Positions 8,673-24,024 are shown, counted from the whole stretch's first letter. The stretch: DNA of 63,989 nucleotides, filler included, from Myxococcota bacterium (GCA_049322255.1; 3 parts of 3 records of this genome joined end to end with filler, not necessarily neighbours in it), one strand, 5' to 3'. The notes: generated by a model from the sequence alone, not told the origin. Translations and numbers: made by a program.

Positions 8673-9376
8673 GCGTGCAGCTCCGCTGGTGTGGGGGTGG
8701 CGCGGCCCAGCACCTTTCCGTCGGCCAGCCGCACCACGGCGTTGGCGTGCGCCATCACGTTCTGGTCGTGGGTGGAGAAGATGAAGGTGGTGCCTTTTTG
8801 CCGGTTGAGCTCCTTCATCAGGTCGATGATGTTCTGCCCGGTCACCGAGTCGAGGTTGGCCGTCGGCTCGTCGGCGAGCACCAGCTTGGGCTCGGTCACC
8901 AGCGCGCGCGCCACCGCCACCCGTTGCCGCTGCCCGCCGGATAGCTCGTTGGGGCGGTGCTTGGCGTGGCCGGCCAACCCGACCTGCTGAAGCAGCCCCA
9001 TCACCCGCTTCTTGCGCTCGGCGCTGCCCAGCCGCCGCTGCAACAGCAACGGGAACTCGACGTTCTGAAACACGCTCAACACCGAGACCAGGTTGAAGCT
9101 CTGGAAGATGAAGCCAATGGTGTGCAGCCGCAGCGAGGTGAGCTGCCGCTCGGACAAGCGCGCGGTGTCATGTCCGGCCACCTCGACTTTTCCGCTGGTG
9201 GCGGTGTCGACGCAGCCGATGAGGTTGAGCAGCGTCGTCTTGCCGCTGCCCGACGGCCCCATGATGGAAATGAATTCTCCCTCGCTGACCTCGAGCGAGA
9301 CGCCTCGGAGGGCCGGCACCACCACCTTGCCCAGGTGGTACTCCTTCACCACGTCGACGATCGAAACGATCGGCAT
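8669..9376 (-). CDS. ABC transporter ATP-binding protein (LolD/MacB-like)
   Basis: GPSGSGKT, GFIFQSFNL, LSGGQRQRVA, LADEPTANLD, STHD. Confidence 0.95.
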   Translation of the reverse strand: MPIVSIVDVVKEYHLGKVVVPALRGVSLEVSEGEFISIMGPSGSGKTTLLNLIGCVDTATSGKVEVAGHDTARLSERQLTSLRLHTIGFIFQSFNLVSVLSVFQNVEFPLLLQRRLGSAERKKRVMGLLQQVGLAGHAKHRPNELSGGQRQRVAVARALVTEPKLVLADEPTANLDSVTGQNIIDLMKELNRQKGTTFIFSTHDQNVMAHANAVVRLADGKVLGRATPTPAELHA

Positions 9377-9492: not shown

Positions 9493-9978
9493 TCAGTAGA
9501 TGGTGCCGCCTTCTTCCTTCTCCTGCTCCTCGGGGAGCTGCTCCTCGCCCGGCTGCTGTCCGGCGCCCCCGGTCCCCGGCTCATGCATGCCCGGCGGAGG
9601 CATGGTCGGCTCTCCTGGGCGCACCTGAGAAATCTGGGTGGCGACGTTGTTGGTGCCGTCGATGTTGAAGCTCGCCCGCACCGGCTGCCCTTCACGCAGG
9701 CTCGCGCGGTCGAAGCCCGTCTCACCGACGTACTTGGTGTTCTTGTCCAGCTTGAGGGGAATGATGACCCCGGTTTGCGGGTGCTTGAGGAAGAGTTGCT
9801 TCGTTTCGACCTTCACCACCTCGCCCATGATTTCGTTCGCCCCCGCCATTCCCGCGCCACCCATACCTGCCTGGGTCTGCTGCTCCTTCTTCGCTTCTTC
9901 ACCGGCTGCACCAGCGAGCGCCACGCCCGCGCTTCCTATGGCAATGGCCGCGGCGATGCCTATGAGCTTGCGTCCCAT
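9493..9978 (-). CDS. Secreted hypothetical protein (OB-fold/DUF5666-like)
   Basis: GGAGG RBS; signal peptide ...GVALA; GEVVKV...LKLDKNTKY...LREGQPVRASF beta-rich core. Confidence 0.7.
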   Translation of the reverse strand: MGRKLIGIAAAIAIGSAGVALAGAAGEEAKKEQQTQAGMGGAGMAGANEIMGEVVKVETKQLFLKHPQTGVIIPLKLDKNTKYVGETGFDRASLREGQPVRASFNIDGTNNVATQISQVRPGEPTMPPPGMHEPGTGGAGQQPGEEQLPEEQEKEEGGTIY

Positions 9979-10117: not shown

Positions 10118-10378
10118 ATGCCTCCGACGCCGAAGTCCTCCGAAGCCGCCCCCACCGAGCCCCTCTACCCGGCGATCGAGTCGTTCATCGAGCGTGCCTC
10201 CGCCGAGCAGGTGCAGGAGCTGTTCACCCCCATTCGCCAGGGGCTGGCCGGCCTCAAAGGCCCCAAGGCAGAGCACGCCAAGAAAGTGCAAAAGGCGATC
10301 GCCGCCGCCGAAGAGCTTCTTTCTCACCTTCTGCAAGTGCGCGAAAGGCTTGAGGCGGAGCGCCAGGGGCAGAAGTAG
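10118..10378 (+). CDS. Small helical protein at the head of the T3SS cluster (positional SctE/YscE-like needle co-chaperone)
   Basis: 86 aa, all-helical; lies just before the needle-like gene and a TPR gene, as in yscE-F-G. Confidence 0.55.
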   Translation: MPPTPKSSEAAPTEPLYPAIESFIERASAEQVQELFTPIRQGLAGLKGPKAEHAKKVQKAIAAAEELLSHLLQVRERLEAERQGQK

Positions 10379-10380
10379 GC

Positions 10381-10407
10381 GCAACTGCTCAAAGAGCCGG
10401 CCGATAA
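10381..10407 (+). promoter_or_regulatory. Putative sigma-28 (FliA-type) promoter
   Basis: Exact GCCGATAA -10 at 10400-10407; GCAAC at the -35 position (10381), canonical TAAAG/TCAAG; 88 bp upstream of the ATG at 10495. Confidence 0.6.
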
Positions 10408-10494
10408 CCCAAGTGAGCGACCCAGTCGAGGCTGGGATGAGCGCTTTTGGTACCATTTCGGAATACCGACACTTACGCAGCACCAGGAGGACTT

Positions 10495-11079
10495 ATGGCA
10501 GGCCCCAACCGCATCGACCCCACCCCGGTCCGTATCTCGACGAACCTCTCGATTGACCGGCAGACCCCCAAGACGGACTTCGGCGACCGCGTGAAGGCGG
10601 GGCTGGACAATGCCGCAGGCGCCGTGGCCAATGGCGCGGCGTTGGCGGCGCCCTTCGTGCCCGGCGGCGCCATCGTCTCCGCGGCCGTCTCCTCGGTCAC
10701 CCAGATGAGCTCGGGCACCGCGTCGGGCCAGGCCACCTCGGCGGCCTATGCCGCGACGGGGGTGGTGAACCTCCCGGGCGCCGGCACCGGCGGCATCAAC
10801 ACCACCGTCGGCCCCACCGGCGCGGCGGGCAACACCAGCGGAATGCCTGGCGTGGGCAGCACCGTGGGCGGGCAGCCCACCAGCCTGCCCGGCACCACCG
10901 GCTCGGGCGGCACCCTGTCGCAGATGAGCTCCGACTTGGTGGCCGCGCAGGCGGAGAACGCCAAGCTGATGCAGGTGCAGATCGCCATGCAGCGCGAGAA
11001 CCAGGTCTTCTCCACCGTCTCCAACGTGCTCAAGACCCGGCACGACACGGTGAAGAACACCATCTCCAACGTCCGCTAA
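10495..11079 (+). CDS. T3SS needle/filament-like subunit (SctF-like C-terminus, long Gly/Thr-rich N-terminal extension)
   Basis: AGGAGG RBS; C-terminus LMQVQIAMQRENQVFSTVSNVLKTRHDTVKNTISNVR resembles the needle/pilus C-terminal helix (SNxxKxxxDxxxxIIxNxR). Confidence 0.65.
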   Translation: MAGPNRIDPTPVRISTNLSIDRQTPKTDFGDRVKAGLDNAAGAVANGAALAAPFVPGGAIVSAAVSSVTQMSSGTASGQATSAAYAATGVVNLPGAGTGGINTTVGPTGAAGNTSGMPGVGSTVGGQPTSLPGTTGSGGTLSQMSSDLVAAQAENAKLMQVQIAMQRENQVFSTVSNVLKTRHDTVKNTISNVR

Positions 11080-11088
11080 GCGAGTGTT

Positions 11089-11137
11089 GAAGGGTAGGGG
11101 CCCTCGCCCTTACCCTCTCTCCCACAGGGAAAGGGGA
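11089..11137 (+). repeat. REP-like palindromic repeat / probable transcript-end hairpin
   Basis: CCCTCGCCCTTACCCTCTCTCCCACAGGGAAAGGGGA directly after the needle-like gene stop. Confidence 0.65.
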
Positions 11138-11201
11138 GCGCGCCGTCCTCCGTGCTATACGGGGCTCGTCATCTCCTCGCAGAAAGGACGGACGCACCCC
11201 C

Positions 11202-11654
11202 ATGGCAGAGGCCGCCTCGGAGATTTCGAACAGCCTGGTCCCCACCGGCAAACAGCAGGCGAGGATTCTGCTCGAGGCCGGCTACCTGTGGATGGACATG
11301 GGCAAGCTCGACAAGGCCAAGGCGGTGCTCCAGGGCGCCGCGGCCTTGATGCCCAAGAGCGAAGTGCCGCAGCTCGCTTTGGGCACGCTCGAGTTCGTCC
11401 AAGGCAAGCACGAGAAGGCGCTGCAGGCCTACCGGGCGGCGCAGAAGCTCGCTCCCCGCTCTGGGCTGCCCCGCGCACACTGCGGGGAGGCGCTCTTGTT
11501 CATGGGCAAGGTGAACGAGGCGATGAAGGAGCTCAAGGCCGCGATGGAAATCGAGCCCCAGGGCGACGGGGCGCGGCTGGCCAAGGCGCTCCTCGAAGCC
11601 AAAGAGGTGGGGGTTTTGCCGCCGCCGAAAGAGAAGAAGGAAAAGAAGAAGTAA
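11202..11654 (+). CDS. TPR-type T3SS chaperone (YscG/SycD-like)
   Basis: AAGGA RBS; about three TPR units (KAKAVLQGAAALMPK, KALQAYRAAQKLAP, EAMKELKAAMEIEP); extended -10-like TGCTATAC at 11153. Confidence 0.75.
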   Translation: MAEAASEISNSLVPTGKQQARILLEAGYLWMDMGKLDKAKAVLQGAAALMPKSEVPQLALGTLEFVQGKHEKALQAYRAAQKLAPRSGLPRAHCGEALLFMGKVNEAMKELKAAMEIEPQGDGARLAKALLEAKEVGVLPPPKEKKEKKK

Positions 11655-11680
11655 CGACGGGGGCACTCGAGGAGAGCACG

Positions 11681-12067
11681 ATGAGAGTCGGAGGCGGTGG
11701 CAAAAAAGGCGGCGTGGGTGGGCCCAAGGGCGCCACAGGGGCGACGAAGACGGGGAAGGTCAGCTTCGGCGGCAAAATCGACAAGACCGAGGCGGTGGAG
11801 CGCACCAGCGGGGTGGTGGGCGCAGGGGGCGTCGGCGGGGTGCAGGCGGCCGACCCGGTCACCACGCAGGCCTTGGACATCGCCCGCCTGCTCAAGAGCG
11901 GGCAAATCAAGTCCAAAGAGGAGGCCACCAAGAAGCTCGTCGCCGAAGTCTTGCGCGAAAAAGTTCGCATGCAGTCGCGCGCCCTCACCGACCGCATCGC
12001 CGACACCCTTCAAGACGACCCGCGGCTCACCCAAGCCCTGGAGCGTCTCTGGTCTTCGGCGGAGTAA
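11681..12067 (+). CDS. T3SS-associated hypothetical protein, possible FlgM-like anti-sigma factor
   Basis: GAGGAG RBS; disordered Gly/Lys-rich N-half, helical C-half; directly upstream of the sigma gene. Confidence 0.6.
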   Translation: MRVGGGGKKGGVGGPKGATGATKTGKVSFGGKIDKTEAVERTSGVVGAGGVGGVQAADPVTTQALDIARLLKSGQIKSKEEATKKLVAEVLREKVRMQSRALTDRIADTLQDDPRLTQALERLWSSAE

Positions 12068-12072
12068 CCTCG

Positions 12073-12852
12073 TTGGCCCTGAACGAGGACAAAAGCCGGA
12101 TTCTCGAGAAGTACGGGCCCTACGTCCGTTCTTTGGCCGTCACCGTCCGAAAACAGTTCAACCACGCCCTCGAGCTGGACGAGTTGATGGCATACGGGCA
12201 GATGGGGCTGCTCGAGGCGGCGGAGCGCTTCGATGCGAAGGTGGGAGCGAACTTCCTCACCTTCGCGCACTACCGCATCAAGGGCGCCATTTACGACGGC
12301 CTGCGAAAGATGGGAATTCTCAGGGGTTCTGACGCGCGCGCCGTCTATGTAGGTGAACGTGCGAGCGCCTACCTGGGGAATCTCTCCGATCGTGAGCAAG
12401 GGGGAGGCAACTGGCGGGGGTCGGTCGACGATGATGTCAGAGACATCTCCAACGCGGTGACTGGCCTGGCGATGGTGTTCGCCACCAGCATGGACGCGAT
12501 GGACGGCCTGCATCTGGCCGACGACCAGATGCCTGCGGACCAGCGGTTGGAGCTGGAGCAGCTCAAAAAGCGGGTGCGGGCGGCGATTGACCGGTTGCCG
12601 GAGAAGGAACGAAACCTACTGACGGGGTACTACTTTCAGGCCAAGACGTTGGAGGAGGCCGGGGCGGCGATTGGGCAGTCGAAGAGCTGGGCGTCGAGGC
12701 TTCACGCACGGGCGATCGAGCAGTTGAAGAAGATGTTGAACGAGGAGGAGTCACATGGCGGGACCACTCGGCGGAATCTCGGCGGCGCAAGCAGCGCAGC
12801 AGAAGCTCCAAGACCAGGGCGCCACCCAAAAGCTCAAGCAGGGCCCAAGTAA
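12073..12852 (+). CDS. RNA polymerase sigma factor, FliA/WhiG (sigma-28) family
   Basis: Region 2 LDELMAYGQMGLLEAAERFDAKVGANFLTFAHYRIKGAIYDGLRK; region 4 AIDRLPEKERNLLTGYYFQAKTLEEAG; TTG start. Confidence 0.88.
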   Translation: MALNEDKSRILEKYGPYVRSLAVTVRKQFNHALELDELMAYGQMGLLEAAERFDAKVGANFLTFAHYRIKGAIYDGLRKMGILRGSDARAVYVGERASAYLGNLSDREQGGGNWRGSVDDDVRDISNAVTGLAMVFATSMDAMDGLHLADDQMPADQRLELEQLKKRVRAAIDRLPEKERNLLTGYYFQAKTLEEAGAAIGQSKSWASRLHARAIEQLKKMLNEEESHGGTTRRNLGGASSAAEAPRPGRHPKAQAGPK

Positions 12853-13312
12853 GTTCGACCAGGCGCTCAAGGCGCAAGGAACCCAAGGGCCCGAGGGCGT
12901 GCAACAGGCCCAAGGAACGCAGAAAGCTCAGGCGGCCCAGGCCGCGCAGCGCGTCGACCAGGCGCGGCAGGTGGAGCAGGTCGCCAAGGCGGAGAAGGCG
13001 GCCCTGAACAAGACCTCGGCGCTCGCCAACCGCGAGGTGCGCGGCACCCTGCCCACCGATCCGGTCACCCAGAAGACCGAGGTGAGCAAGGCCACCAGCG
13101 TGATGACCCACATGCTCGAGGGCATCGAGAAGGGTCAGGGCGTGATGGACAAGCTCATTGCCGCGGGAGTGTCGGGAAAGAACTTCTCCTCGGGCGAGCT
13201 GCTCGCGCTCCAGGCGGGAATGTACAAGTACACCCAGGAGCTGGAGCTGACCGGCAAGGTGGTGGAGAAGGCCACCAGCGGCCTCAAGGACACCCTGAAG
13301 ACGCAGGTGTAA
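12755..13312 (+). CDS. sctI: T3SS inner rod protein, SctI-like
   Basis: C-terminal ELLALQAGMYKYTQELELTGKVVEKATSGLKDTLKTQ matches the YscI/HrpB2 pattern; immediately before sctJ; GAGGAG RBS. Confidence 0.75.
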   Translation: MAGPLGGISAAQAAQQKLQDQGATQKLKQGPSKFDQALKAQGTQGPEGVQQAQGTQKAQAAQAAQRVDQARQVEQVAKAEKAALNKTSALANREVRGTLPTDPVTQKTEVSKATSVMTHMLEGIEKGQGVMDKLIAAGVSGKNFSSGELLALQAGMYKYTQELELTGKVVEKATSGLKDTLKTQV

Positions 13313-13351
13313 GTCGCCGCTCTTGCCAAGCCGTAGTAAGGTGCCGCCTCG

Positions 13352-14155
13352 ATGACTTCGCGCGCGGGGCGGTTCCTGGTTGGGTGGCTCGTCACGGCGA
13401 CGCTCGTGGGCTGCACCGTCGAGCTGCAGCACGACCTGGAAGAAGACGACGCCAACGACATCTACGTCCTTTTGCAGAAGAACGGCATCGAGGCCAAGAA
13501 GCTCAAGGACGAGGGAGGCAACGAGCCGCGCTACGTCATCAGCGTGGCCAAGGGCGACGTGGCCACCGCCGCTCAGCTCTTGCGCGAATATTCGCTCCCC
13601 CGGCCCAAGGCCGAAGGGCTGGGCATCTTCCGCAAGAGCAAGGGAATGATTCCCACCCAGACCGAGGAGCGCGCGATGTACATCGAGGCGCTCGGCGGCG
13701 AGGTGTCGAACGCCCTCAACCGGGTGCCCGGGGTGCTCGAGGCACGCACCATCGTGGTGATGCCCGAGGTGAACGACCTCACCCAGCCGGACAAGAAGCC
13801 CGAGCCCTCGGCTTCCGTGTTCGTCAAGTACCGCCCGGTGGCCGACGGCAAGGCGCCCTTGTCGGATGAAGACATCAAGGCCTTCGTCGCCACCGCGGTG
13901 CCGGAAATGAAGGCGGCCAACGTCACCGTGCTCAAGACCTTGGCCATGCCGCCCGAAGCCGAAGGCAGCCCGGAGCAGCGCATGGTGACCGTCTTCTCCT
14001 TGCGCATGGCCAAAGGGAGCGCCGATCAGTTCAAGCTGATGGTGCTCGGGGCGGGGCTGTTCGTTTTGGCGATGGTCGCCGTCGCCGGGTGGAGCCTGAC
14101 CCGGGGCGGCACGAGCAGCGCAGCCAAGGCCAGGGCACGCGCGCGGGTGGAATAG
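13352..14155 (+). CDS. sctJ: T3SS inner-membrane ring lipoprotein SctJ (YscJ/HrcJ)
   Basis: Lipobox LVGC; LEEDDANDIYVLLQKNGIEAKK; GMIPTQTEERA...EVSNALNRVPGVLEAR; SASVFVKY; C-terminal TM; too short for FliF. Confidence 0.92.
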   Translation: MTSRAGRFLVGWLVTATLVGCTVELQHDLEEDDANDIYVLLQKNGIEAKKLKDEGGNEPRYVISVAKGDVATAAQLLREYSLPRPKAEGLGIFRKSKGMIPTQTEERAMYIEALGGEVSNALNRVPGVLEARTIVVMPEVNDLTQPDKKPEPSASVFVKYRPVADGKAPLSDEDIKAFVATAVPEMKAANVTVLKTLAMPPEAEGSPEQRMVTVFSLRMAKGSADQFKLMVLGAGLFVLAMVAVAGWSLTRGGTSSAAKARARARVE

Positions 14156-14158
14156 CGG

Positions 14159-15634
14159 TTGGAACAGTTCTTCGCCGCCCTTTCCAAGCGCCAGAGCATG
14201 CTCCTGCTCACCGCGGTGACGTTCGGGGGCTCGGAGTGCCCTTCGGCGCTCGACCACTTGCCGCCCGACGAGGCAGAGCTGCTTCAGTTTCGCGCCGCCG
14301 AGATGCTGCAGATTCCCCGGGAGAAGCGCATTCCGCTCCTGGTGCAGGAGATCAAGCGGCTGGTGAAGACCCAGCGGCGAATGCTCAACTCCGCCGACCC
14401 CGAGCGGCTGGCGGTGGTGCTTTCCAAGGAGCGTGGGGCGCTGCAGCAGGTGGTGCTGCGTGCCTTGCCGGCCTCGATCGCCGAAGGGGCCCGGGCGCTG
14501 CTCCAACGCCGGGAGCTCTCCTTGAAGAAGGAGGTCAAGCCCGAGATTCTCAACATCGTGCGCTGGAAGCTGGAGGAGCTGCTTGCGCGCGACGTGCCGC
14601 GACACGGTGTCTTCAAGTTCACCGACATCCTCTTGTTGCACGCACGCGAGCTGGTGACCCTGTGCGACCGCATGGGAGCGCGGGCGCTGGCGACGGCGAT
14701 CGCCGGTTTGCCCGAGGAGGAGCGCAAGGCGTTCTTCGACGCGCTCTCTCCCGACCAGCGGACGCTGGCGATGCGTGCCTCCGAGGCCGGGGCGGACCGG
14801 CGGCTGAACGTCGACGACGCCAAGACCATTCTTTCGCTGTACGACGCGCAGAAGCGCCCTTCGACGGGCATGCGCAGCGCCGGCGTGCAGCGGCTGGCGC
14901 GAGCGTGTCTTGCCCAGTCGCCCGAGTTCGCCGCCCGCATGCTCGAGCGCCAGAGCGGAGAGATCGGCAAGCTTTTGGCCAAGTGGGTGCGCGAGGAACG
15001 CCACCGGCCGATTCGCGGCGACGGAGGGCGCGCCGACATGGTCGAGCAGCTGGAGCGGTTGGCGCAGAAGGGCGTCGTCGAACGGCCGCTGCGTTTACCT
15101 CCTCCTCCCAAGCGCCCGGTGCCGCCCATGCCCGCCGGCCGGCTGCTGGCGCCGCCGCCGAAGTCGGTGGGAGAGCGCGCGGCGCAGCGTCTGCCGCCGC
15201 CTCCGGCGAAGGGGCCGGGTGGAGTGATTGCTCCCCCGCCGCCTCGGAGAGACCCGATCGCCGAGCGCGCGGCCAAGCGGGCAGGAGCGGTGGGTAGAGG
15301 GGGGCCTTCCGAGCGCCGGCGAGATCCGATCGCCGAACGGGAAGCACGCCGGGCGGGGGCCTTCGTCGCCCCGCGGCCGCCGGAGCCCTCCACCGACCCT
15401 GAGCGTTCCGTGGTGCCGCGGCGCATCTTGCGCGAGGGGCCCGACGGTCAGTGGGACAACGCCGACACCCTTCCTCCTCAGGGAAAAGCCCAATTGAGCC
15501 CGGTGCTTACCCGCCCTCCTCAGCGCAAGGCAGGGGTGATTGCGGGCACGGTGGTGAGCCGTCCGCCCCGCCCCACGGGGTCGAAGGCGGTGCTCAAAGG
15601 GCCGAACCGTGGACCCAAGGACGGTTCGGGCTAG
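14159..15634 (+). CDS. T3SS protein in the SctK/FliG position, with Pro/Arg-rich tail
   Basis: Located between sctJ and sctL; helical N-terminal ~300 aa, low-complexity C-terminus. Confidence 0.55.
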   Translation: MEQFFAALSKRQSMLLLTAVTFGGSECPSALDHLPPDEAELLQFRAAEMLQIPREKRIPLLVQEIKRLVKTQRRMLNSADPERLAVVLSKERGALQQVVLRALPASIAEGARALLQRRELSLKKEVKPEILNIVRWKLEELLARDVPRHGVFKFTDILLLHARELVTLCDRMGARALATAIAGLPEEERKAFFDALSPDQRTLAMRASEAGADRRLNVDDAKTILSLYDAQKRPSTGMRSAGVQRLARACLAQSPEFAARMLERQSGEIGKLLAKWVREERHRPIRGDGGRADMVEQLERLAQKGVVERPLRLPPPPKRPVPPMPAGRLLAPPPKSVGERAAQRLPPPPAKGPGGVIAPPPPRRDPIAERAAKRAGAVGRGGPSERRRDPIAEREARRAGAFVAPRPPEPSTDPERSVVPRRILREGPDGQWDNADTLPPQGKAQLSPVLTRPPQRKAGVIAGTVVSRPPRPTGSKAVLKGPNRGPKDGSG

Positions 15635-15658
15635 GATTGAGCCCCGAAGGAGCCCCCG

Positions 15659-16366
15659 ATGGAAGACGGCCCTCGGGACGAGAAGCGTCCGAGCGCAAAT
15701 GTGCGGGTGAGCAAGGTCATCAAGGGGGATGCTGCGCCCGATGCAGTGCCCGCCGACCGGCTCCTTTTGCGCCCGCCTCGTCCGGGGGTGCTCAACGCAG
15801 AGGAGTTCGAGGCGCGCACCAATGCCCAGAAAATCATCGAGGACGCCGAGCGCAAGAAGCAGGAGATTCTCGACGAGGCCAACCGTCAGCGTGAGGAGAT
15901 CTTCGAGAAGGCGCGCGACGAGGCGCGGGCGGAGGTGGCGGCGCAGGCCTCCGCAGAGCTCGCCAAGGCGAAGATGCAGGCCGGGCAAATCATCGCCGGC
16001 GCCGAGCAGCAAATCGTTCAGCTCGCGCTGAAGGTGGCGGAGAAGATCATCGGCCAAGACCTCGAGCGGGACCCGGAGGTGCTCCTGCGCATCTGCGCCA
16101 CCGCCATGGAGAACGTGCGCCAGGCGAACGCCATGGTCCTCAAGGTCAACCCCAAGGACGGCCGCTTCTTGAGAGAGAAGCGCGCGGGGTTGATGGAGCT
16201 CTTGGGGCGTACCCTCGACCTGTCGATCAAAGACGACTCCGACGTCGAGCCGGGCGGCTGCATCATCCAGACCGAGTTCGGCACCATCGATGCGCAGCTG
16301 AAGACCCAGTACGAGATGCTCAAGAACGTGCTCGTCCCCGACACCGGGAAGAAGGAGCCGAAGTGA
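15659..16366 (+). CDS. sctL: T3SS stator SctL / FliH family
   Basis: Coiled N-half; LALKVAEKIIG, LKVNPKD, DSDVEPGGCIIQTEFGTIDA. Confidence 0.92.
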   Translation: MEDGPRDEKRPSANVRVSKVIKGDAAPDAVPADRLLLRPPRPGVLNAEEFEARTNAQKIIEDAERKKQEILDEANRQREEIFEKARDEARAEVAAQASAELAKAKMQAGQIIAGAEQQIVQLALKVAEKIIGQDLERDPEVLLRICATAMENVRQANAMVLKVNPKDGRFLREKRAGLMELLGRTLDLSIKDDSDVEPGGCIIQTEFGTIDAQLKTQYEMLKNVLVPDTGKKEPK

Positions 16367-16388
16367 TGGCCCAGCAGGGGAGCCAGCG

Positions 16389-17699
16389 ATGGCCATCGAC
16401 CTGACGCGCTACCAGCAGCTGGTGAAGGAGGCGCAGCTCGTGCGGGTGCGCGGGCGGGTCACCGAGCTCACCGGCTTGGTGATCAAGGCCGCGGTGCCGG
16501 GGGTGCGGGTGGGCGAGGTGGTGGAGATACGCGGTCGCTCGCGCCAGATGGTCCGCGCCGAGGTGGTCGGCTTTCAGGGCGAGGAGGTCATGCTCATGCC
16601 CTTGGGCGAGCTGACCGGCATCGGCCCCGACTCCGAGGTGATACCCACCGGCAAGCCGCTGACCATCAAAGTGGGAGATGGGCTTTTGGGGCGGGTGCTC
16701 TCGGGGCTGGGCGAGCCGATCGACGGCAAGCCGCTCCCGGAAGGATTGCTTGACTGGTCGGTGGACCGCGACTGCCCCGACCCCTTTCTGCGCCGGCGCA
16801 TCGAGCGGCCGTTGGCGCTGGGGCTGCGCTGCATCGACGGTCTGCTCACCGTGGGGGAAGGACAGCGTATCGGCCTGTTCGCCGGCTCGGGCGTGGGCAA
16901 ATCCACCCTCATGGGGCAGATCGCCCGCCAGGCCCACGCCGAGCTCGCGGTGATCGCCCTCATCGGCGAGCGCGGGCGCGAGGTGCGCGAGTTCATCGAG
17001 GACTCCTTGGGGGAGGAGGGCCTTCAGCGCTCGGTGGTGGTGTGCGCGACCTCCGACCAGCCCTCGCTGGTTCGCCTGCGTGCCGCCTTCGTGGCCACCT
17101 CCATCGCCGAGTACTTTCGTGACCGGGGCGGCAACGTGCTCTTCATGCTCGACACGGTGACCCGTCTGGCCCGCGCCCAGCGCGAGATCGGCCTGGCCAT
17201 CGGCGAGCCCCCCGCGCGGCAGGGTTACCCGCCGTCGGTGTTTTCGATGCTGCCGCGCATTCTCGAGCGCACCGGCAACTCGGACAAAGGTGGCTGCACC
17301 GCCATCTACACGGTGCTCGTCGCCGGGGGCGACATGGAAGAGCCGATCGCCGACGAGGTGCGCGGTATTCTCGACGGTCACTTCATCTTGAACCGCGCGT
17401 TGGGCGAGCGAAACCAGTGGCCGGCGATGGACGTTTTGGCCTCGCTCTCCCGCGTGATGAGCGGCATCGCCTCGCCCGAGCACAAGCAAGCCGCCGGCAA
17501 GCTGCGCGAAACGCTCGCCACCTACGAGAAGCAGCGCGACCTCATCTTGCTGGGCGCGTACCAGTACGGCACCGACCCGAAGACCGACTACGCCATCGAC
17601 AAGTACGAGGCGATCATCGACTTCCTCAAGCAGGGGACGGACGAGAACGCCTCCTTCGAGGAGACGGTCCAGCAGCTGATTGGCCTGTTCGAAGAGTAG
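16389..17699 (+). CDS. sctN: T3SS ATPase SctN / FliI family
   Basis: GEGQRIGLFAGSGVGKS, LIGERGREVREF, GYPPSVF, ADEVRGILDGH. Confidence 0.97.
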   Translation: MAIDLTRYQQLVKEAQLVRVRGRVTELTGLVIKAAVPGVRVGEVVEIRGRSRQMVRAEVVGFQGEEVMLMPLGELTGIGPDSEVIPTGKPLTIKVGDGLLGRVLSGLGEPIDGKPLPEGLLDWSVDRDCPDPFLRRRIERPLALGLRCIDGLLTVGEGQRIGLFAGSGVGKSTLMGQIARQAHAELAVIALIGERGREVREFIEDSLGEEGLQRSVVVCATSDQPSLVRLRAAFVATSIAEYFRDRGGNVLFMLDTVTRLARAQREIGLAIGEPPARQGYPPSVFSMLPRILERTGNSDKGGCTAIYTVLVAGGDMEEPIADEVRGILDGHFILNRALGERNQWPAMDVLASLSRVMSGIASPEHKQAAGKLRETLATYEKQRDLILLGAYQYGTDPKTDYAIDKYEAIIDFLKQGTDENASFEETVQQLIGLFEE

Positions 17700-17713
17700 G
17701 ATGAGCCTCGCCC

Positions 17714-18205
17714 ATGCCTCCGTACCGCTTACAGACGTTGCTCGAGATGCGCGAGCGCGCCGAAGAAGAGGCCAAACAGGCCTTCTCCGAGGCGATGCAG
17801 GCGTTGGCCAAGGAACGGGCTGAGCTGTCGCGCCTCCAAGCCGAGCTGGAAAAAAAGAAGCAAGAACGGAAGGCCAAGGTAAAGGCGTATGTCGAAGAGG
17901 TGATGTCCAAGGGCGGCGGGGCCGGCGGGCTTTCGATGATGAACCGCTACGAGGAGCGCCTCAAAGACGAGGAGACCCAGCTCGCCCTGGAGATCGAACG
18001 CCAGGCGGAAGCGGTGAAGAGGGCCGAAGACTTGGTGGAAGAGCGCCGCGCCCAGATGGCCGAGGCGGCCAAGGAGAAGAAGGCGATCGAGAAGCACAAG
18101 GAGAACTGGAACAAAAAGGTGCGCGCCGAGCGCGAGATGCGCGAAGAGTTGAATCAGGAGGAGATCGGCAACGCGCTGTACCTGGCCAGGCAGAGGAAGC
18201 AATGA
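17714..18205 (+). CDS. sctO: T3SS stalk SctO / FliJ family
   Basis: YRLQTLLEMRERAEEEAK start, long coiled coil, directly after the ATPase. Confidence 0.85.
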   Translation: MPPYRLQTLLEMRERAEEEAKQAFSEAMQALAKERAELSRLQAELEKKKQERKAKVKAYVEEVMSKGGGAGGLSMMNRYEERLKDEETQLALEIERQAEAVKRAEDLVEERRAQMAEAAKEKKAIEKHKENWNKKVRAEREMREELNQEEIGNALYLARQRKQ

Positions 18206-19188
18206 GCCGTATCGACGACGAGCGCGACGCCGCGCGAGTGGCAGAGAGAATCGCCCTCCAGCGCCGCGAAGAGGAGCAGAAGGCCAAGGACCGCGCCAGC
18301 GCCGACTCGGCCTTCGCCAAGCTCGTCGGCCAGCAGAAAGAGGCAAAAGCCAAGGCGCAGCGCGACGCCGTGGGCCGAAGCGCGGTGGAAAAGCTACTCG
18401 AGGAGCAGGAGGGGCAGCGCTCGGGCGAAGCCGCCCACACAGCCACCTCGACCGTCACGGAGAAGGGGCAGGCTCGCAGCGCCGCTGCGCGGGGCAGGGG
18501 TGCGCTGGAGCGCAAGGCCTTCGAAGCGACGCTCAAAGAGGGGTCGACCGCGCAGGAAAAGCGCGCCGAAGCCGGCAAGAACGTCGAAGTGGCCGAGAGC
18601 TCTCACCGGGGTGAGGCGCACGCCGCCGAAGGGCGCGCCGAGGGCCGCCGGGGCGACGCCCGGGCCGGGAGTGACGTGCTCAACGAGCGGCGCGAAGAGG
18701 GCGCCCACCCGGGCCAACCCGCTCGGGGAGGAGCCCCCGCCGCCCAAGGCGAGCTCCAGGCCGACGCGGACAAGGGTGGGGGACAGGGCGGCCAGAAGAA
18801 GGACGAGAAGCCCTCCGACCCCTTGGGGGGAGGCTTTCGCTTCAACCCCGCGTTGATGGCTCCCGTGCCGGTGGCCCAGGCGAAGAAGAGCTCCGGGTCC
18901 GACCGCCTGCGCGCGCTGGCCAGCGAGATCGCCCAGAAGATCGTCGAGCGGGTGCGGGTGGGCACCAACGCCGCCGGCAGGGCCGAGTTTCAGATCGACT
19001 TACGCAGCGAGGTGCTCTCCGGCCTGTCCATCAAGGTCTCCAGCTCGGGCGGGAAAATTGCCGCGGTCTTTTCGGGGAGCGACCGTGAGGTGATGAAGCT
19101 GCTTCGCGAGCAACAAGAGGCGCTGGAGCAGGCGCTCACCCGCCGGGGGCTTCAAGTCGAAGAGCTACGAATCGAGGACCGCGCGTGA
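18202..19188 (+). CDS. sctP: Length-control/ruler protein SctP / FliK family
   Basis: Disordered body with C-terminal T3S4-like domain (EFQIDLRSEVLSGLSIKVSS...LREQQEALEQALTRRGLQV); sctO-P-Q order. Confidence 0.78.
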   Translation: MSRIDDERDAARVAERIALQRREEEQKAKDRASADSAFAKLVGQQKEAKAKAQRDAVGRSAVEKLLEEQEGQRSGEAAHTATSTVTEKGQARSAAARGRGALERKAFEATLKEGSTAQEKRAEAGKNVEVAESSHRGEAHAAEGRAEGRRGDARAGSDVLNERREEGAHPGQPARGGAPAAQGELQADADKGGGQGGQKKDEKPSDPLGGGFRFNPALMAPVPVAQAKKSSGSDRLRALASEIAQKIVERVRVGTNAAGRAEFQIDLRSEVLSGLSIKVSSSGGKIAAVFSGSDREVMKLLREQQEALEQALTRRGLQVEELRIEDRA

Positions 19189-20428
19189 GCCCGCCGCCCA
19201 AGGTCGCCACCGGCGAGCGCACCATGAGGGTCAGTGCGCCCGTCTTTCACCGCTCGGGGAAGGTGTGGCGCGACTTCAAGTTCACCCATCTGGAGAAGGT
19301 CACCGGGGCGCAGAAGCTTTTGGCCAAGCGCCTGGAGTGGCTCTTGCCAGGGCTCAACGCGAGCGGGGTGGCCAGCGAGGCGGTGCGCGAGCGGCTCAAG
19401 CTTTTGTTCGAGGAAGAGGTGAGGCTGTCGGTGGAGTACGTTCACGTCATCTCTCCCAAGGCGCTCAAGAAGCACGTGGGCGACCCGACGTTTTTGGGCG
19501 TGGTGGCTCCGGTGCCGCACAAGACGCGCGGGCTCTTGGAAGTCGAGCTGGCGCTGGCGCACACCGCGATCGACATGCTCCTGGGCGGTGCGGGAGAGAC
19601 GGTGGCGCTGCGGCCGCTCACCGAAATCGAGGAGGGGGTGATGACCTACGTCCTCATCGAGACCCTCAAGGCGCTCTCCCCGCACTTGGACCCCGGCCTG
19701 CCGAGACTGCGCCTGGAGGGGTTGATTCGCGGCGTCGACGAGGCGCTTTCACTGCTCTCCGAGGAAGCGCAGGTGGCGGTGGTGCAGCTCAAGTGCGTCT
19801 TGGGCGGGCAATCGGGGTACTTGCGCCTGTTCATCCCCGCCTCGGTGCTGGCGATGACCCAGCCTCCTCCGGAGGCCGAGGCGCGCCGAGCCAAGCGCGC
19901 CGCCGACTTCGCCGCCCACCGAAGCCGTCTGGCGGGAGTGAAAGCGTGGCTCCGGGCAGAAATCGGCTACGCCGCCGTCACCAGCGCCGACCTCGTCCAG
20001 CTGCGCGATCGCGACGTGGTACTGGTCGACCAGCTCACGGTGCGGCCCGACCAGGGNNNNNNNNNNNNNNNNNNNNNNNNNNNNNNNNNNNNNNNNNNNN
20101 NNNNNNNNNNNNNNNNNNNNNNNNNNNNNNNNNNNNNNNNNNNNNNNNNNNNNNNNCCTCCGAAAGGGGACCAGTGGACCAGAGCATGCACAAAGCCGAG
20201 GGCGGAGAGCTCCTCAACGACATTCCGTTGCAGATCGCGGTGGAGCTGGCGCGGGTGTCCATCACCGCGGAAGAGGTGGTGGCCTTGAAGGTGGGCGAGG
20301 TGCTCGATTTGAACCGCGTGCCGGGCGAGCCAGTCGAGCTGTCGGTGAACGGTAAGGTCGTGGCCCGGGGCGAGCTGGTGGAAGTCGAGGGCCACCTGGG
20401 TGTGCGGGTGCTCTCGCTCGCCGGGTAG
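19185..20428 (+). CDS. sctQ: T3SS C-ring protein SctQ (FliM/FliN-like), interrupted by a 100-N gap
   Basis: N-part LRPLTEIEEGV...LRAEIG...LRDRDVVLVD; C-terminal SpoA domain DIPLQIAVELARV...LKVGEVLDL...VELSVNGKVVARGELV; frame across the gap unknown. Confidence 0.85.
20057..20156. other. Scaffold gap (100 N)
   Basis: Run of 100 N inside sctQ. Confidence 0.99.
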
Positions 20429-20451
20429 GCAAGCTGTTCATTGGCGCTCCG

Positions 20452-21009
20452 TTGCCTATTCCACTACGGTTCGGCCCCGTGACGGCACTCCTCTTCGCCG
20501 GGCTCGCCCTGCTGGCGCAGGCTCCTGTCCCTTCGGGTGCCGCGCCTGCCACCGAGGCTTTGGCGCCCGTTGCGCCGGCGATGCGTGGAGACCGCGACCT
20601 GCCCGACCTCACGGCTCCCAGCGCGCCGCCCGTGGAGGACATGAGCCTGGGGTGGACGCTCGTTCGCACCCTGCTCGTCCTGGGCATCGTGGTGGCGCTC
20701 ATCTACCTTTCTCTCAACTTCGGGCTGCGCAGGCTGATGGGTCTTCGCGGGCCTGCCGGCGGCGGCGTATCGCTGGTGACGCTTTTGGAGCGGCTGCCGC
20801 TCGACCAGAAGCGCGCACTCTTCGTCGTCAAGGCCGCGGGCGACTACCTGCTCATCGGCGGCGGCGAGCAGGAGCTCTCCCTCATCGCCAAGCTCGACCC
20901 CGAGGAGGTCGAGCGGGTGGTGCGCGAGCGGCCCTCGCCTACGGTTACCTCGAGCCCCTTTTTGCAGAAGCTGCTCGCCAAGCGCGGCGGTCCGCCGCCT
21001 TCCGCGTGA
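20452..21009 (+). CDS. fliO: FliO-family export gate chaperone
   Basis: TM helix TLLVLGIVVALIYL then VTLLERLPLDQKRALFVVKAAGDYLLIGGG...LSLIAKL (FliO pattern); sits between fliN/sctQ and fliP/sctR; start uncertain. Confidence 0.82.
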   Translation: MPIPLRFGPVTALLFAGLALLAQAPVPSGAAPATEALAPVAPAMRGDRDLPDLTAPSAPPVEDMSLGWTLVRTLLVLGIVVALIYLSLNFGLRRLMGLRGPAGGGVSLVTLLERLPLDQKRALFVVKAAGDYLLIGGGEQELSLIAKLDPEEVERVVRERPSPTVTSSPFLQKLLAKRGGPPPSA

Positions 21010-21011
21010 GG

Positions 21012-21836
21012 ATGAACTTCGTGAACGCAAAGCTCGGACGTTGGCAGCGCGCGCAGCTCTTTGCCTTCAGCGCCGCCCTCCTGGTCTCGCAGGTGGCGTT
21101 GGCGCAGAAGAAGGGCAAGGGGGCGCTGGCCGGCGTGGACTTGGGCTCGGACAACTTCAGCGGCGAGTCGTTCGCTTCGCGTCCGCTCATCCTCATCATC
21201 GCGCTGGCGGCGCTGGGCCTGGTGCCCTTCGTGCTGTTGATGGTCACCAGCTTCGTGAAAATCTCGGTGGTGCTCTCCATCGTCCGCTCGGCGCTCGGCA
21301 CCCAGCAGATTCCGCCCACCCAAGTCATCACCGGGCTGGCGATCATCCTCACCGTCTACATCATGGCGCCGGTGGGGCAGGAGATGGCGCGCGTCGCCGA
21401 CGTCGCCGGCTTCCAGTCCACCGAAGGGGTGTTCTCCTCGCGCACGGTGGGCGAGCTGTTCGAGGCCTCGAAGCGCGCCAAAGAACCCTTGCGCGACTTC
21501 TTGCTCAAGAAGGTCACCACCAAGGACCGGTCGCTCTTCTTCAACCTCGCGCTGAAGATGCGCAAGGTGGAGGACCGCGAGGGCGTCACCGACAAGGACT
21601 TCTTGGTAATCGTCCCTGCGTTCGTGGTGTCGGAGCTCAAAGAAGCCTTTCAGATCGGCTTTCTGCTCTTCGTGCCCTTCATCGTCATCGACATGGTGGT
21701 GGCGAACATCCTGCTTGCGCTGGGCATGCACATGCTCTCCCCGACCACCATCTCCATGCCCTTCAAGCTCTTGCTTTTCGTGCTCGTCGACGGCTGGTAC
21801 CTCATCGCCAAGGGCCTGGTCGTCGGTTACCTGTAA
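21012..21836 (+). CDS. sctR: Export gate protein SctR / FliP
   Basis: MVTSFVKISVVLSIVRSALGTQQIPP; PAFVVSELKEAFQIGF; LPFKLLLFVLVDGW-type motif. Confidence 0.96.
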   Translation: MNFVNAKLGRWQRAQLFAFSAALLVSQVALAQKKGKGALAGVDLGSDNFSGESFASRPLILIIALAALGLVPFVLLMVTSFVKISVVLSIVRSALGTQQIPPTQVITGLAIILTVYIMAPVGQEMARVADVAGFQSTEGVFSSRTVGELFEASKRAKEPLRDFLLKKVTTKDRSLFFNLALKMRKVEDREGVTDKDFLVIVPAFVVSELKEAFQIGFLLFVPFIVIDMVVANILLALGMHMLSPTTISMPFKLLLFVLVDGWYLIAKGLVVGYL

Positions 21837-21847
21837 GGAGGCGCACC

Positions 21848-22114
21848 ATGCACCAGCTCACTTTCATCACCCAGCAGGCGCTCTTTCTGGTGCTGGTGGC
21901 TTCGGCACCGCCGGTGATCATGAGTTTGATCGTCGGCTTCATCATCTCGGTCTTCCAGGCGACCACCCAGATTCAGGAGCAGACGCTGTCCTTCGCGCCG
22001 AAGGTGGTGGTGGTCTTCGGCATGCTGGCGCTCTCCGGTGGGTGGATTGGCGCCCAATTGGTGCGCTTCACCTTCCACATCTTCGACCGCTTCCCCTATC
22101 TGCTCGGGCGATGA
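21848..22114 (+). CDS. sctS: Export gate protein SctS / FliQ
   Basis: IISVFQATTQIQEQTLSFAPK; AAGGAGG RBS. Confidence 0.96.
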   Translation: MHQLTFITQQALFLVLVASAPPVIMSLIVGFIISVFQATTQIQEQTLSFAPKVVVVFGMLALSGGWIGAQLVRFTFHIFDRFPYLLGR

Positions 22115-22941
22115 ACCTCTCCGAGGTCTTCTCCACCCTGGCCCAGGAATTCGGGCTCGAGGTCAACCTCACGGTGGTCATCCTCACGATGGCCCTGCTC
22201 CTGTCGCGCATCTTGCCGGTGATTCTCCTCTCGCCGTTCTTGGGCGGCGAGGTCGTGCCTCCCGAGGTGCGGCTGGGGGTGGGAGTGATGCTCGGCCTGG
22301 TGCTCTTCCCTGGCGTCGCCGATCGAATGGGGTACGTGCCGACGGCGGCGATCCCTTACGTAGCGCTGCTTCTCAAAGAGCTCTTCTTCGGCCTGTGCCT
22401 TTCCTTCGTGGTGGGCATGGTGTTCGAGGCGGCCCAAGTGGCAGGCACGCTGATCGACACCATGGCTGGTACCAACATGGCGCAGGTGATGGTGCCGCAG
22501 ATTCAGCAGCAGGTGTCCCTCTTCAGCTCGCTCAAGCTGCAGCTGTCGGTGGTGCTCTTCCTCACCTTGAACGGCCACCACCTGGTGATCGGCGCCTTCG
22601 CCGACAGCCTGCTCGCCCTTCCGCTCGACAAGTTCCCCGCGCTCTCTGGCGGAGCGTGGCCGTTCTTCGATTTGGTGCTGCGGGTGTTTCAAGACCTGAT
22701 GCGCCTGGGTCTGGCGCTCGCCGCGCCTGCCTTCGTGGCGGCCTTTCTCACCGATCTCGCGCTGGGGATGATCAACCGGGTGGCGCCCCAAATTCAGGTG
22801 TTCTTCGTCTCGATGCAGATCAAGCCCATGGTGACGGTGCTCGTCATCTTCATCGCGCTCACCCTCATCTTCGATCGGCTGGTGGGCGAGTACGGCTACA
22901 TGTTCCAGCGGGTGCGGGAGGCGATCCGGCTGCTCGTGTAG
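22111..22941 (+). CDS. sctT: Export gate protein SctT / FliR
   Basis: KELFFG...AAQVAGTLIDTMAG; TDLALGMINRVAPQIQVFF. Confidence 0.95.
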   Translation: MNLSEVFSTLAQEFGLEVNLTVVILTMALLLSRILPVILLSPFLGGEVVPPEVRLGVGVMLGLVLFPGVADRMGYVPTAAIPYVALLLKELFFGLCLSFVVGMVFEAAQVAGTLIDTMAGTNMAQVMVPQIQQQVSLFSSLKLQLSVVLFLTLNGHHLVIGAFADSLLALPLDKFPALSGGAWPFFDLVLRVFQDLMRLGLALAAPAFVAAFLTDLALGMINRVAPQIQVFFVSMQIKPMVTVLVIFIALTLIFDRLVGEYGYMFQRVREAIRLLV

Positions 22942-22959
22942 CGGCGGTCGACACATTCC

Positions 22960-24024
22960 ATGTCATCTGAAGGCGGCGAGAAGACAGAAGAACCCACAGA
23001 CAAAAAAATCCAAGACAGCCGCAAGAAAGGCCAGGTCTGGAACAGCCGCGATCTGACCGGGGTGGCCGTCTTCCTCGTCGGTCTGGGCGCGATGAAGGCG
23101 GTCTGGCCGATGGTGGAGTCCGAGGTGAGCGCGCTCTTTCGCTTCACCTTCGACAAGGTCGCTCATCCCCGAGAGCTGGAAGTCGCCACCTACCAGATGC
23201 TGCTGATGATGGTGACCAAGACGCTCCTGCTCACGCTCCCGGTGGCGATGGCCTGCGCGGTGGTGGGCGGGCTGGTGAACTTCCTCCAGGTGGGGCCGCT
23301 GCTCGCCGTCGACACCTTGATGCCCAAGCTCGACAAGCTCAACCCGCTGGCCGGGTTGAAGAACATGTTCTCCAAGAAGAGCCTGATCGAGGCGCTCAAG
23401 TCGATGATCAAGATTTCGATCGCCGCCTACGTCGTCTACGGCGTGGTGCGCGACGCGATGGGCATGGTGGTGGGCACCATTCGCGGCGACGTTCCGCTCA
23501 CCTTGGCGGTTTTGGGCGAGCTGGTCTTTCGCGTCTCGGTGCGGGTGGGCTTACTCTTTTTGCTCTTCGCCCTCTTCGACGTCTGGTGGCAGCGCAAGAA
23601 CTATTACAAGGACCTCATGATGACCAAGGACGAGGTCAAGCGTGAATACAAGGAGAGCGAGGGCGACCCGCACCACAAGGCCAAGCGCAAGGAGATGCAC
23701 CAGGAGATCCTCGAGGGGGCCCAGATGGAGGCGGTGAAGGGCGCCGACGTGGTGGTCACCAACCCCACCCACTTGGCGGTGGCGCTCAAATACGACCACG
23801 GCAAGGACGCGGCGCCTCGCATCATCATCAAGGGCGCCGACCGCCGGGCGGAGGCGATTCGCGAATGGGCGAAAGACGCCGGGGTGCCCATCTGGCGCAA
23901 CGTGCCCCTGGCGCGCGCGCTCCACGGCCTTCCGGAGGGAGAGCACATTCCCGAGGAGCTCTACGACGCGGTGGCCGAAGTCCTAAACTTCGTCTACTCC
24001 CTCCAAGTTCCCTCTCCCTCTGGG
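22960..24024 (+). CDS. sctU: Substrate-switch protein SctU / FlhB, stop codon lost at contig end
   Basis: EKTEEPT start, MTKDEVKREYKESEGDP, NPTH autocleavage motif, IPEELYDAVAEVL. Confidence 0.96.

Follow-up and report, generated by a model that had tools for sequence, protein, structure and literature searches.

A T3SS (type III secretion system) locus of a Myxococcota bacterium (GCA_049322255.1) encodes two proteins, F1 and F2, that are very probably of the axial needle or tip-filament kind, and a FliA-like sigma factor that likely reads a promoter motif, GCAAC-N16/17-CGATAA, preceding both genes. The window, the whole 63,989-nucleotide stretch analysed, is made of joined contigs: positions 1-24024 are contig C61, and those beyond 24025 are spacer and unrelated contigs. 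The genome that it comes from, G000, comprises 4.85 Mb and is 99.6% complete. Eighteen genes, all on the + strand, run from 10118 to the end of C61. The segment 10118-24024 makes up the opening half of the long non-flagellar T3SS of myxobacteria, the T3SS* of Myxococcus xanthus. The genes listed in a first-pass annotation of the window are all there in the order it gave, and its guess that the locus type was not new holds: the type is already known, and the present copy is only another member.

Long and short myxobacterial T3SS loci have been described and placed at the base of the non-flagellar T3SS, and passages of the same paper state that the secretin, SctF, tip and translocon are missing from them (PMC3459982, Abby and Rocha 2012). 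Passages of later papers describe MXAN_2434-2464 as a needle-less T3SS* that is required for prey lysis, is recruited by the Kil pilus and has unknown effectors (PMC12075869, PMC10433427, PMC12428579, PMC10849154); the prey-lysis requirement is published, in those passages, for M. xanthus only (PMC12075869, PMC10433427). FliO in both myxobacterial systems has already been reported (PMC12403147). Since sctQ is MXAN_2445 (PMC10196010), gene counting with consecutive numbering assumed makes F1 likely MXAN_2434 and the sigma factor likely MXAN_2437. In the literature covered, largely without subscription papers, we found no assignment of a needle subunit, sigma factor or promoter to T3SS*, and the MXAN tags searched were absent from the supplements of PMC10196010 (one file) and PMC8844925 (four files). 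What is new relative to that literature is the set of needle- or tip-like F genes, the promoter motif and the candidate cargo. The elements on which the argument turns are the following.

10381..10407, +, predicted promoter GCAAC-N16-CGATAA, with a sigma-28-type -10 and an altered -35 (conservation, co-occurrence, RNA)
10495..11079, +, F1, 194-residue axial-filament-like protein, ATG at 10495 (profiles, synteny, models)
12073..12852, +, sigma factor of the FliA/WhiG type containing regions 2 and 4 (113.5 bits versus a cut-off of 189.6, still the best family); its 3' end overlaps sctI
G000 contig C114:11470-12249 (locus L086), -, F2, 259-residue F1 paralogue with an amphipathic N-terminus and, like F1, a C-terminal helix of the needle/tip-filament kind, between LcrH-like chaperones and before sctV

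Likeness of F1 and F2 to needle and tip-filament proteins

F1 consists of a conserved, hydrophobic N-terminal helical hairpin, a variable G/S/T-rich middle and a conserved C-terminal helix of the SctF/Bsp22 type. Its gene lies between one for a small helical protein and one for a TPR protein and stands before sctI-sctJ, which is the position of SctF in annotated Desulfovibrio- and Ysc-type loci. The order E-F-G-x-I-J-K-L-N-O-P-Q-R is that of the annotated Nitratidesulfovibrio T3SS, and E-F-G-x-I-J-K-L matches the Ysc E-F-G-H-I-J-K-L block. In the short myxobacterial locus, an F paralogue lies directly 5' of sctI-sctJ (F-I-J-K). The long-locus order recurs in Myxococcota, where 33 loci extend far enough to show the needle-like gene 5' of sctN; the arrangement is therefore not chance.

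To profile searches, PF09392 (SctF) was the commonest family among the F1 homologues (21/92, weak matches, best E 0.007). At E<=0.1 it was matched in 32 of the 121 genomes of the order, the matches examined being mostly F1-, F2- or F3-type genes, and two exceeded the cut-off of 29.4 bits; both are F2 paralogues (34.3 and 32.6 bits). The same family in 300 genomes of another class found only 2 needles. A profile of F1 alone, built without PF09392, had the needle protein EsaG as its top PDB match (E 0.058 and 0.38; chain identified through a passage of PMC9426511). The annotated Nitratidesulfovibrio needle scored 24.5 bits with this profile and three other needles only 5-6 bits, compared with at most 6.8 for five rods and at most 1.3 for translocon and tip controls. 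Conversely, when a profile of 11 true needles was run on 32,255 open reading frames (ORFs) of G000, the short-locus F protein ranked first (E 0.11) and F1 third (E 1.9). The F1 tests that are independent of the SctF model are consistent but weak. With a mixed F1 and F2 profile (A7), all 12 PDB matches were needle chains (EsaG 3e-6, PrgI 0.002, MxiH), a partly circular result.

The F1 profile gave 13-45 bits to eight F2 rows, which had been found through PF09392 or came from the genome itself, and 4 bits to the copy of relative G053. In some relatives F2 occurs as needle-sized copies of 72-74 residues: identical 72-residue copies stand in tandem in G109 (L196:17138-18247), and identical 74-residue copies lie on the opposite strand in G053 (L154:254-475 and 2669-2890) with a DUF1521 protein between them.

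The family is broad, with 2,805 clusters at 50% identity, and is found in 174 of 201 Myxococcota genomes (one of them unpublished). Some of these belong to families outside the order that show the gene order F-G-sigma-I. That block was seen outside the order in L155, L161, L162, L202, L203 and L236. G430 has it alongside flagellar FliF, FlgM and FliA; F-like matches number 29 there and motif sites 50. G000 encodes a fourth F-like protein (354 residues) followed by a TPR chaperone outside both loci (C85:6629-8200, L193), and similar pairs occur in the sigma-less family f7. A gene cut by a contig end (C96:3-413, -, L194) has an F2-like N-terminus and a near-consensus promoter and is possibly a further paralogue. 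Two Pseudomonadota genomes hold lone proteins with the F-type C-terminal helix (L198:1147-1626, L199:1474-1677) and no T3SS gene in the adjoining 3 kb. Among metagenomic proteins, the helix stands behind unrelated coiled-coil N-termini (P0167, P0170, P0182, P0191, P0266 and others) or apparent signal peptides (P0183, P0238).

Across 401 Pseudomonadota genomes, the F1 profile found four proteins in three genomes. In two of them (E 0.001-0.005), the gene is followed downstream by those for a TPR chaperone and an SseC translocator, and by position we tentatively take these two to be Bsp22-like. F1 of the window is weak against needles and better against these presumed Bsp22-like proteins; the hhalign probability of 91 against the pair is circular because the pair was itself found with the F1 profile. 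F1 and its homologues had no EspA family match. In Bsp22 and EspA, helices at both termini enclose a variable loop (PMC12607632; bioRxiv 10.1101/2025.09.16.676505). F1 shares this layout, and both kinds occur in multiple copies; unlike Bsp22/EspA, F1 sits in the needle slot rather than beside translocators, and no translocon was found.

Several results weigh against this assignment. F1 scored 15.2 bits with PF09392 against a cut-off of 29.4 (E 0.024), and 8-38 in hhalign probability against needles. F1 alone is never significant against needles, whether by Pfam (E 0.024), PDB (E 0.058/0.38) or the reverse search (E 1.9). The circularity of A7 arises because 10 of its 28 rows were chosen via PF09392. 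AlphaFold predicts, at low confidence (predicted template modelling score 0.22), one long C-terminal helix instead of the needle hairpin. A fold search with that model returned generic long helices only (Z<=5.5), and an Atlas structure search with F1 was uninformative; an Atlas feature search gave one lead, a cluster with PF09392 in 11% of its members (score 0.89). On the supporting side, a predicted complex of G, E and the F1 C-terminus scored 0.56 (best control 0.00), with runs agreeing in at least 89% of contacts and partner pLDDT (per-residue model confidence) of at least 62; the tool rates it weak, and it may reflect likeness to solved trimers. Among solved pairs 116 of 157 reach the score mark, and among mismatched pairs 2 of 215; at <=0.60 these are 18 solved pairs and both mismatches.

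Taken together, the data make F1 and F2 very probably members of the axial needle/tip-filament kind, and the first-pass description of F1 as needle-like is backed to that extent, but F1 fails the SctF cut-off and filament formation is a further step. By a narrow preference, we would regard F1 not as the needle proper but as an extension of the Bsp22/EspA kind, with F2 forming the needle beneath it.

The sigma factor, its likely promoter motif and candidate cargo

The locus sigma factor is 28-30% identical to the FliA-like sigmas of two FliI loci. The canonical sigma-28 consensus is TAAA-N15-GCCGATAA. It had no match in the window, and its -35 was found in 0/34 orthologous upstream regions. The GCCGATAA element with at most one mismatch lies 5' of F1 in 24/33 orthologues, compared with 1/29 for E, 1/36 for G, 1/34 for X, 0/34 for the sigma gene and 7/27 for sctI. 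In 28 of 34 orthologous F1 upstream regions, GCAAC stands 16-17 bases 5' of CGATAA. Thus, of the sigma-28 promoter claimed in the first-pass annotation, the -10 type and the spacing stand, but the TAAA -35 is absent and the element is GCAAC-N16-CGATAA.

Within G000, the only two sites with 16-base spacing lie 5' of F1 and of F2 (C114:12328); one 17-base site precedes an unrelated gene, and other spacings gave 0-2 sites. The strict count (3) is near chance, with about 0.5 expected per spacing, which speaks against the motif when this genome is taken by itself. A position weight matrix scan of G000 gave 35 matches versus 16-25 in controls, and beyond the top few these are not above noise. Across the 121 genomes of the order, at least three strict sites were present in 39/39 sigma-positive genomes (median 10; sigma call at E<=1e-45; reversed controls 0-5 sites) versus 6/82 without the sigma factor, a comparison among kin that are not independent and in which sigma-positive genomes tend to be larger. 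Additionally, one RNA run with unstated growth conditions was mapped to M. xanthus locus L015. Its sense-strand depth stayed at 73-110 across E and at 73 on the motif (3293-3319), reached 165 in the following bin and 470-610 across F1 with G, and was 54-391 farther along, which places the start only to a 160-base bin. From co-occurrence and the family of the protein, the locus sigma factor likely reads the GCAAC-N16/17-CGATAA motif.

Similar to the FliA (sigma-28)/FlgM regulon, the locus combines a FliA-like sigma factor, a CGATAA -10 at the same spacing and a motif before filament-subunit-like genes. It differs in the -35 (GCAAC, not TAAA), in a sigma factor below the FliA cut-off and in the lack of FlgM, flagellin, rod and FliF matches in G000. 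X was considered as a FlgM-like anti-sigma factor and rejected: the likeness seen by eye was unsupported by Pfam (30 members), a PDB profile search and a fold search. PF04316 (FlgM) had no match in any of four Myxococcaceae genomes, which counts against the overall model, although a divergent anti-sigma factor is conceivable. The sigma-28 circuit proposed in the first-pass annotation is borne out as far as sigma factor and motif co-occur, but with no anti-sigma factor found it falls short of a full flagellar-type circuit.

We followed all 30 strict sites of three Myxococcaceae genomes, G053, G076 and G115; 29 have a downstream ORF. The downstream genes comprise F1 in each genome, one 73-residue SctF-like gene and many unknowns, and in G115 two peptidoglycan-binding proteins, one an amidase and the other of GH19 type, as well as a protease of the thermolysin type and a C39-like peptidase. 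The first 30 residues of the 29 proteins are rich in S/T/P/N/Q (mean 0.40 versus a background of 0.23 +/- 0.10). By eye, the proteins mostly have no signal peptide, and at least one is lipoprotein-like. The pattern [DS]xF[ED] occurs near residues 30-70 in 10/29 of them versus 62/3,330 background ORFs; it is a lead only, having been defined after the first 21 proteins were seen, and 1/8 later proteins has it. In G430, 20 of the 50 motif sites were followed, and these are not cleanly assignable since flagellar genes are also present. The motif-controlled proteins of relatives are candidate T3SS* substrates. As a point on the other side, G000 itself has no hydrolase gene behind a strict site.

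Core machinery, phylogenetic position and missing parts

The remaining genes of the operon are:

10118..10378, +, E, 86-residue helical protein, candidate co-chaperone in the YscE/CdsE position (position; weak three-chain prediction)
11202..11654, +, G, TPR chaperone in the YscG/CdsG position (TPR match)
11681..12067, +, X, 128 residues, disordered N-terminus and three helices, YscH position (conserved)
12755..13312, +, SctI inner rod (PF17001, E 0.004, weak)
13352..14155, +, SctJ inner-membrane ring lipoprotein, 267 residues (TIGR02544 138 bits versus FliF 38 bits; lipobox LVGC)
14159..15634, +, protein in the SctK position, carrying a FliG_C domain and ending in a proline-rich tail (PF01706 over Pfam cut-off)
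15659..16366, +, SctL stator (TIGR02499 over cut-off)
16389..17699, +, SctN ATPase (TIGR02546 over cut-off; tree)
17714..18205, +, SctO stalk (PF16789)
18202..19188, +, SctP/FliK ruler (PF02120 over cut-off)
19185..20428, +, SctQ, FliM-like and FliN-like domains (PF02154 over Pfam cut-off)
20452..21009, +, FliO (PF04347 over cut-off)
21012..21836, +, SctR with a FliP-like, signal-peptide-type N-terminus (TIGR01102 over cut-off)
21848..22114, +, SctS (Pfam/NCBIfam)
22111..22941, +, SctT (Pfam/NCBIfam)
22960..24024, +, SctU, cut by the contig end (NCBIfam)

Matches in Pfam and NCBIfam identify SctJ, L, N, O, P, Q, FliO, R, S, T, U as well as the FliA/WhiG-like sigma factor; the 86-, 194- and 128-residue genes match no family. 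The E protein is conserved in 30 loci; a homology to YscE by sequence was rejected, no family or PDB entry matching. For G, the best T3SS model is LcrH/SycD (41 bits, below cut-off), followed by CdsG at 22 bits. In hhalign, the SctI profile reached probability 74 against rods and 2 against needles. SctQ is interrupted by a 100-N assembly gap at 20057-20156, with its 3' part in frame, and is whole in the orthologue of L195. The flagellar traits proposed earlier (FliA-like sigma factor, FliO and a FliP-type SctR N-terminus) were confirmed, and FliG_C in the K slot and a FliM domain in SctQ add to them. FliG_C is also over cut-off in 3/3 K-slot orthologues scanned, and by eye 10/12 myxobacterial SctR orthologues (two unreadable) and 0/2 proteobacterial SctR have a similar N-terminal extension.

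The locus resumes on the reverse strand of contig C114, whose end shares a 9-nucleotide overlap with that of C61; the whole order through sctV lies on a single contig in L195, L196 and G053. C114 carries, in order, a FlhB-like gene, a 158-residue protein, a TPR chaperone, F2, two TPR chaperones and sctV, and past sctV, convergently, an FHA protein and a TPR lipoprotein, then an outer-membrane beta-barrel. With sctV found there, sctI, J, L, N, Q, R, S, T, U and V are all present in conserved order. SctN is 81-92% identical to SctN of about 50 loci, mostly labelled Myxococcota (84% for M. xanthus L015), and the genes one by one are 42-84% identical to those of L015 in the same order. T3SS* of M. 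xanthus (MXAN_2434-2464) likewise has no secretin, encodes FliO and is accompanied by a second, short locus; we see no difference in kind, F2 being one long protein in G000 and short copies only in some relatives.

In a quick maximum-likelihood IQ-TREE phylogeny of 40 SctN rows, with very long outgroup branches and SH-aLRT support values, SctN of the window fell in a Myxococcota clade (94), with the rest of the injectisome SctN as its sister group (95*). Together the two form a clade (96*) that is separate from FliI rows, the 10 sampled rows outside it scoring best as FliI. This agrees with the published basal position of the myxobacterial systems. The core ATPase therefore branches neither within a flagellar clade nor within a standard secretin-containing injectisome family. 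G000 had no flagellin, rod, FliF or FlgM match in searches that did not include the hook and MotAB; of the flagellar parts said earlier not to be visible, flagellin and rod are thus without a match genome-wide.

Like Ysc- and Desulfovibrio-type injectisomes, the locus has E-F-G-x-I-J-K-L and N-O-P-Q-R-S-T-U order, a SctJ lipoprotein, SctI and a SctN of the same clade. Unlike them, it has FliO, a FliG-like K, a FliM-like Q, a signal-like SctR, an in-operon sigma-28-type factor and a 194-residue F1 with an extension, and no SctC, SctW, periplasmic SctD or SctE was found. Of the three secretins of G000, all on contigs other than those of the locus, one is PilQ, one is GspD and one passes none of the family cut-offs tested. 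The FHA protein of C114 resembles the cytoplasmic domain of YscD and scores 48 of 86 bits with TIGR02500; with no periplasmic domain found, it is only a candidate for the sctD sought on other contigs. At the far end of the locus (C114:5216-7868, L086), and also in G053, lie a small outer-membrane beta-barrel, a TPR lipoprotein and a double-FHA membrane protein, which may be candidates for envelope passage or for the so-called SctD.

The short myxobacterial locus of G000 (C2:24730-33385, L087) encodes an F-like protein, sctI, J, a K-like protein, Q, a fliO-like protein, R, S, T, U and V; the region upstream lacks a strict promoter motif, and no SctN of its own was found. Around the operon, a 161-residue protein of no family with a signal-like N-terminus (9493-9978, -) is divergent from it and kept in place in 11 related loci (28-38% identity). 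Farther upstream (6561-9376, -), translation reading alone suggests an ATP-binding cassette transporter ATPase and a large permease-like gene. The assembly break sits in a short inverted repeat just 3' of sctU (24006-24024 and the C114 end).

A filament-building model and its rivals

We consider T3SS* to be an early-branching injectisome without a secretin of its own that, more likely than not, polymerises an axial filament rather than being needle-less. From the observed gene content and order, phylogenetic position, F1/F2 likeness and motif-sigma co-occurrence, we infer the following working order. SctJ, SctRSTUV (with FliO), a FliG/FliM-like sorting platform and the SctN/L/O ATPase would assemble at the inner membrane. 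SctI, then F1 and F2, would be exported and polymerised, with E and TPR chaperones keeping F1 and F2 soluble and SctP/SctU, whose genes are retained in the locus, acting as ruler and switch. From GCAAC-N16/17-CGATAA promoters, the sigma factor would transcribe the genes for the filament together with a scattered late set, and this set (signal-peptide-less; peptidoglycan hydrolases and proteases in relatives) would be lytic cargo. The outer membrane would probably be crossed via a borrowed channel, with the Tad/Kil secretin as first candidate because T3SS* recruitment depends on Kil in published work.

The envelope poses a difficulty for this model. There is no linked secretin, and the SctC model was below cut-off for all three G000 secretins. 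Four of four myxobacterial genomes had no SctC, no periplasmic SctD domain and no SctW gatekeeper or SseC translocator (SctE) over cut-off, whereas a positive control, G121, matched both of the latter models. With SctC, periplasmic SctD, gatekeeper and translocator not found, the outer-membrane route is unexplained. Likewise, the literature, mainly open-access papers, describes no T3SS* filament, and that F1 and F2 are exported and polymerise is our reading of their sequences.

The missing parts also suit a conduit confined to the periplasm, in which F1 and F2 form a short rod-like structure or are secreted adaptors, cargo leaves by way of the tips of the Kil (Tad) pilus, which is already a published proposal, and the system is functionally needle-less despite its SctF-like genes. 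Passages of published work lend this some weight: without Kil, T3SS* is not recruited, and the tips in turn require T3SS* to function (PMC12075869), and a periplasmic needle-like structure without a secretin is conceivable according to Abby and Rocha (PMC3459982). We nevertheless consider it improbable, given that F1-G is the most abundant transcript of the covered stretch in the single L015 RNA run, that tandem F2 copies, several with their own promoter, fit a high-copy structural subunit and that the ruler is kept. The hydrophobic hairpin of F1, the amphipathic N-terminus of F2 and TPR neighbours that score best as LcrH/SycD could instead point to SctB-type translocator-like or membrane-active substrates, with the hairpin entering the prey envelope and the TPR proteins serving as chaperones. 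This reading we rate as distinctly improbable for the proteins as a whole, and it can coexist with the filament model for the N-terminal part. No IpaC/SipC, YopD or EspB family appeared in 28 C-termini or 92 full-length homologues (HMMER filters limit weak matches), two annotated SctB proteins scored below 0 bits with the F1 profile, and the 72-74-residue copies are too short for a membrane domain.

A different doubt concerns the sigma factor, which together with its motif might run a general late surface and secreted regulon that merely sits in the operon, without secretion feedback and with many motif genes that are not substrates. The missing anti-sigma factor fits this, as do several lipoprotein- or Sec-like motif genes, above all in G430 with its flagellar FliF, FlgM and FliA, but the motif precedes F1 and F2 and the 29 downstream proteins share S/T/P/N/Q-rich N-termini; we judge it unlikely, if a serious contender. 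That the locus is a degenerate relic of a flagellum or injectisome, as an older annotation cited in passages of PMC3459982 and PMC10196010 had it and as its missing core parts might suggest, is extremely improbable: the frames are intact, the order is conserved across the phylum, the genes are transcribed, and the published requirement for prey lysis in M. xanthus largely refutes it.

The earlier picture of a filament-building organelle intermediate between flagellum and injectisome is supported, with the SctN clade basal and filament-like genes present, but the filament is a deduction and the mosaic traits are better read as ancestral features retained by an early-branching lineage. That T3SS* is a living flagellum/injectisome intermediate, with needle plus filament made from SctF/Bsp22-type subunits, sigma timing of shifted specificity, a borrowed Tad secretin and sigma-defined wall-lytic enzymes injected into prey, is a tentative proposal that we hold as somewhat doubtful. 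Were it true, the motif would list T3SS* effectors genome-wide and SctF would never have been lost from the myxobacterial lineage. Papers to 2025 call T3SS* needle-less with unknown effectors, and under the usual account of its evolution the lineage lost SctF. By gene count, the mxan_2438-2451 deletion used in PMC12075869 likely leaves F1, the sigma factor and F2 untouched and would therefore not have tested those genes. If F1 and F2 are filament subunits, both the SctF-loss scenario and the model in which Kil tips replace the needle would need revision. The promoter motif yields a short set of candidate substrates for lysis, and does so in a predator amenable to genetics.

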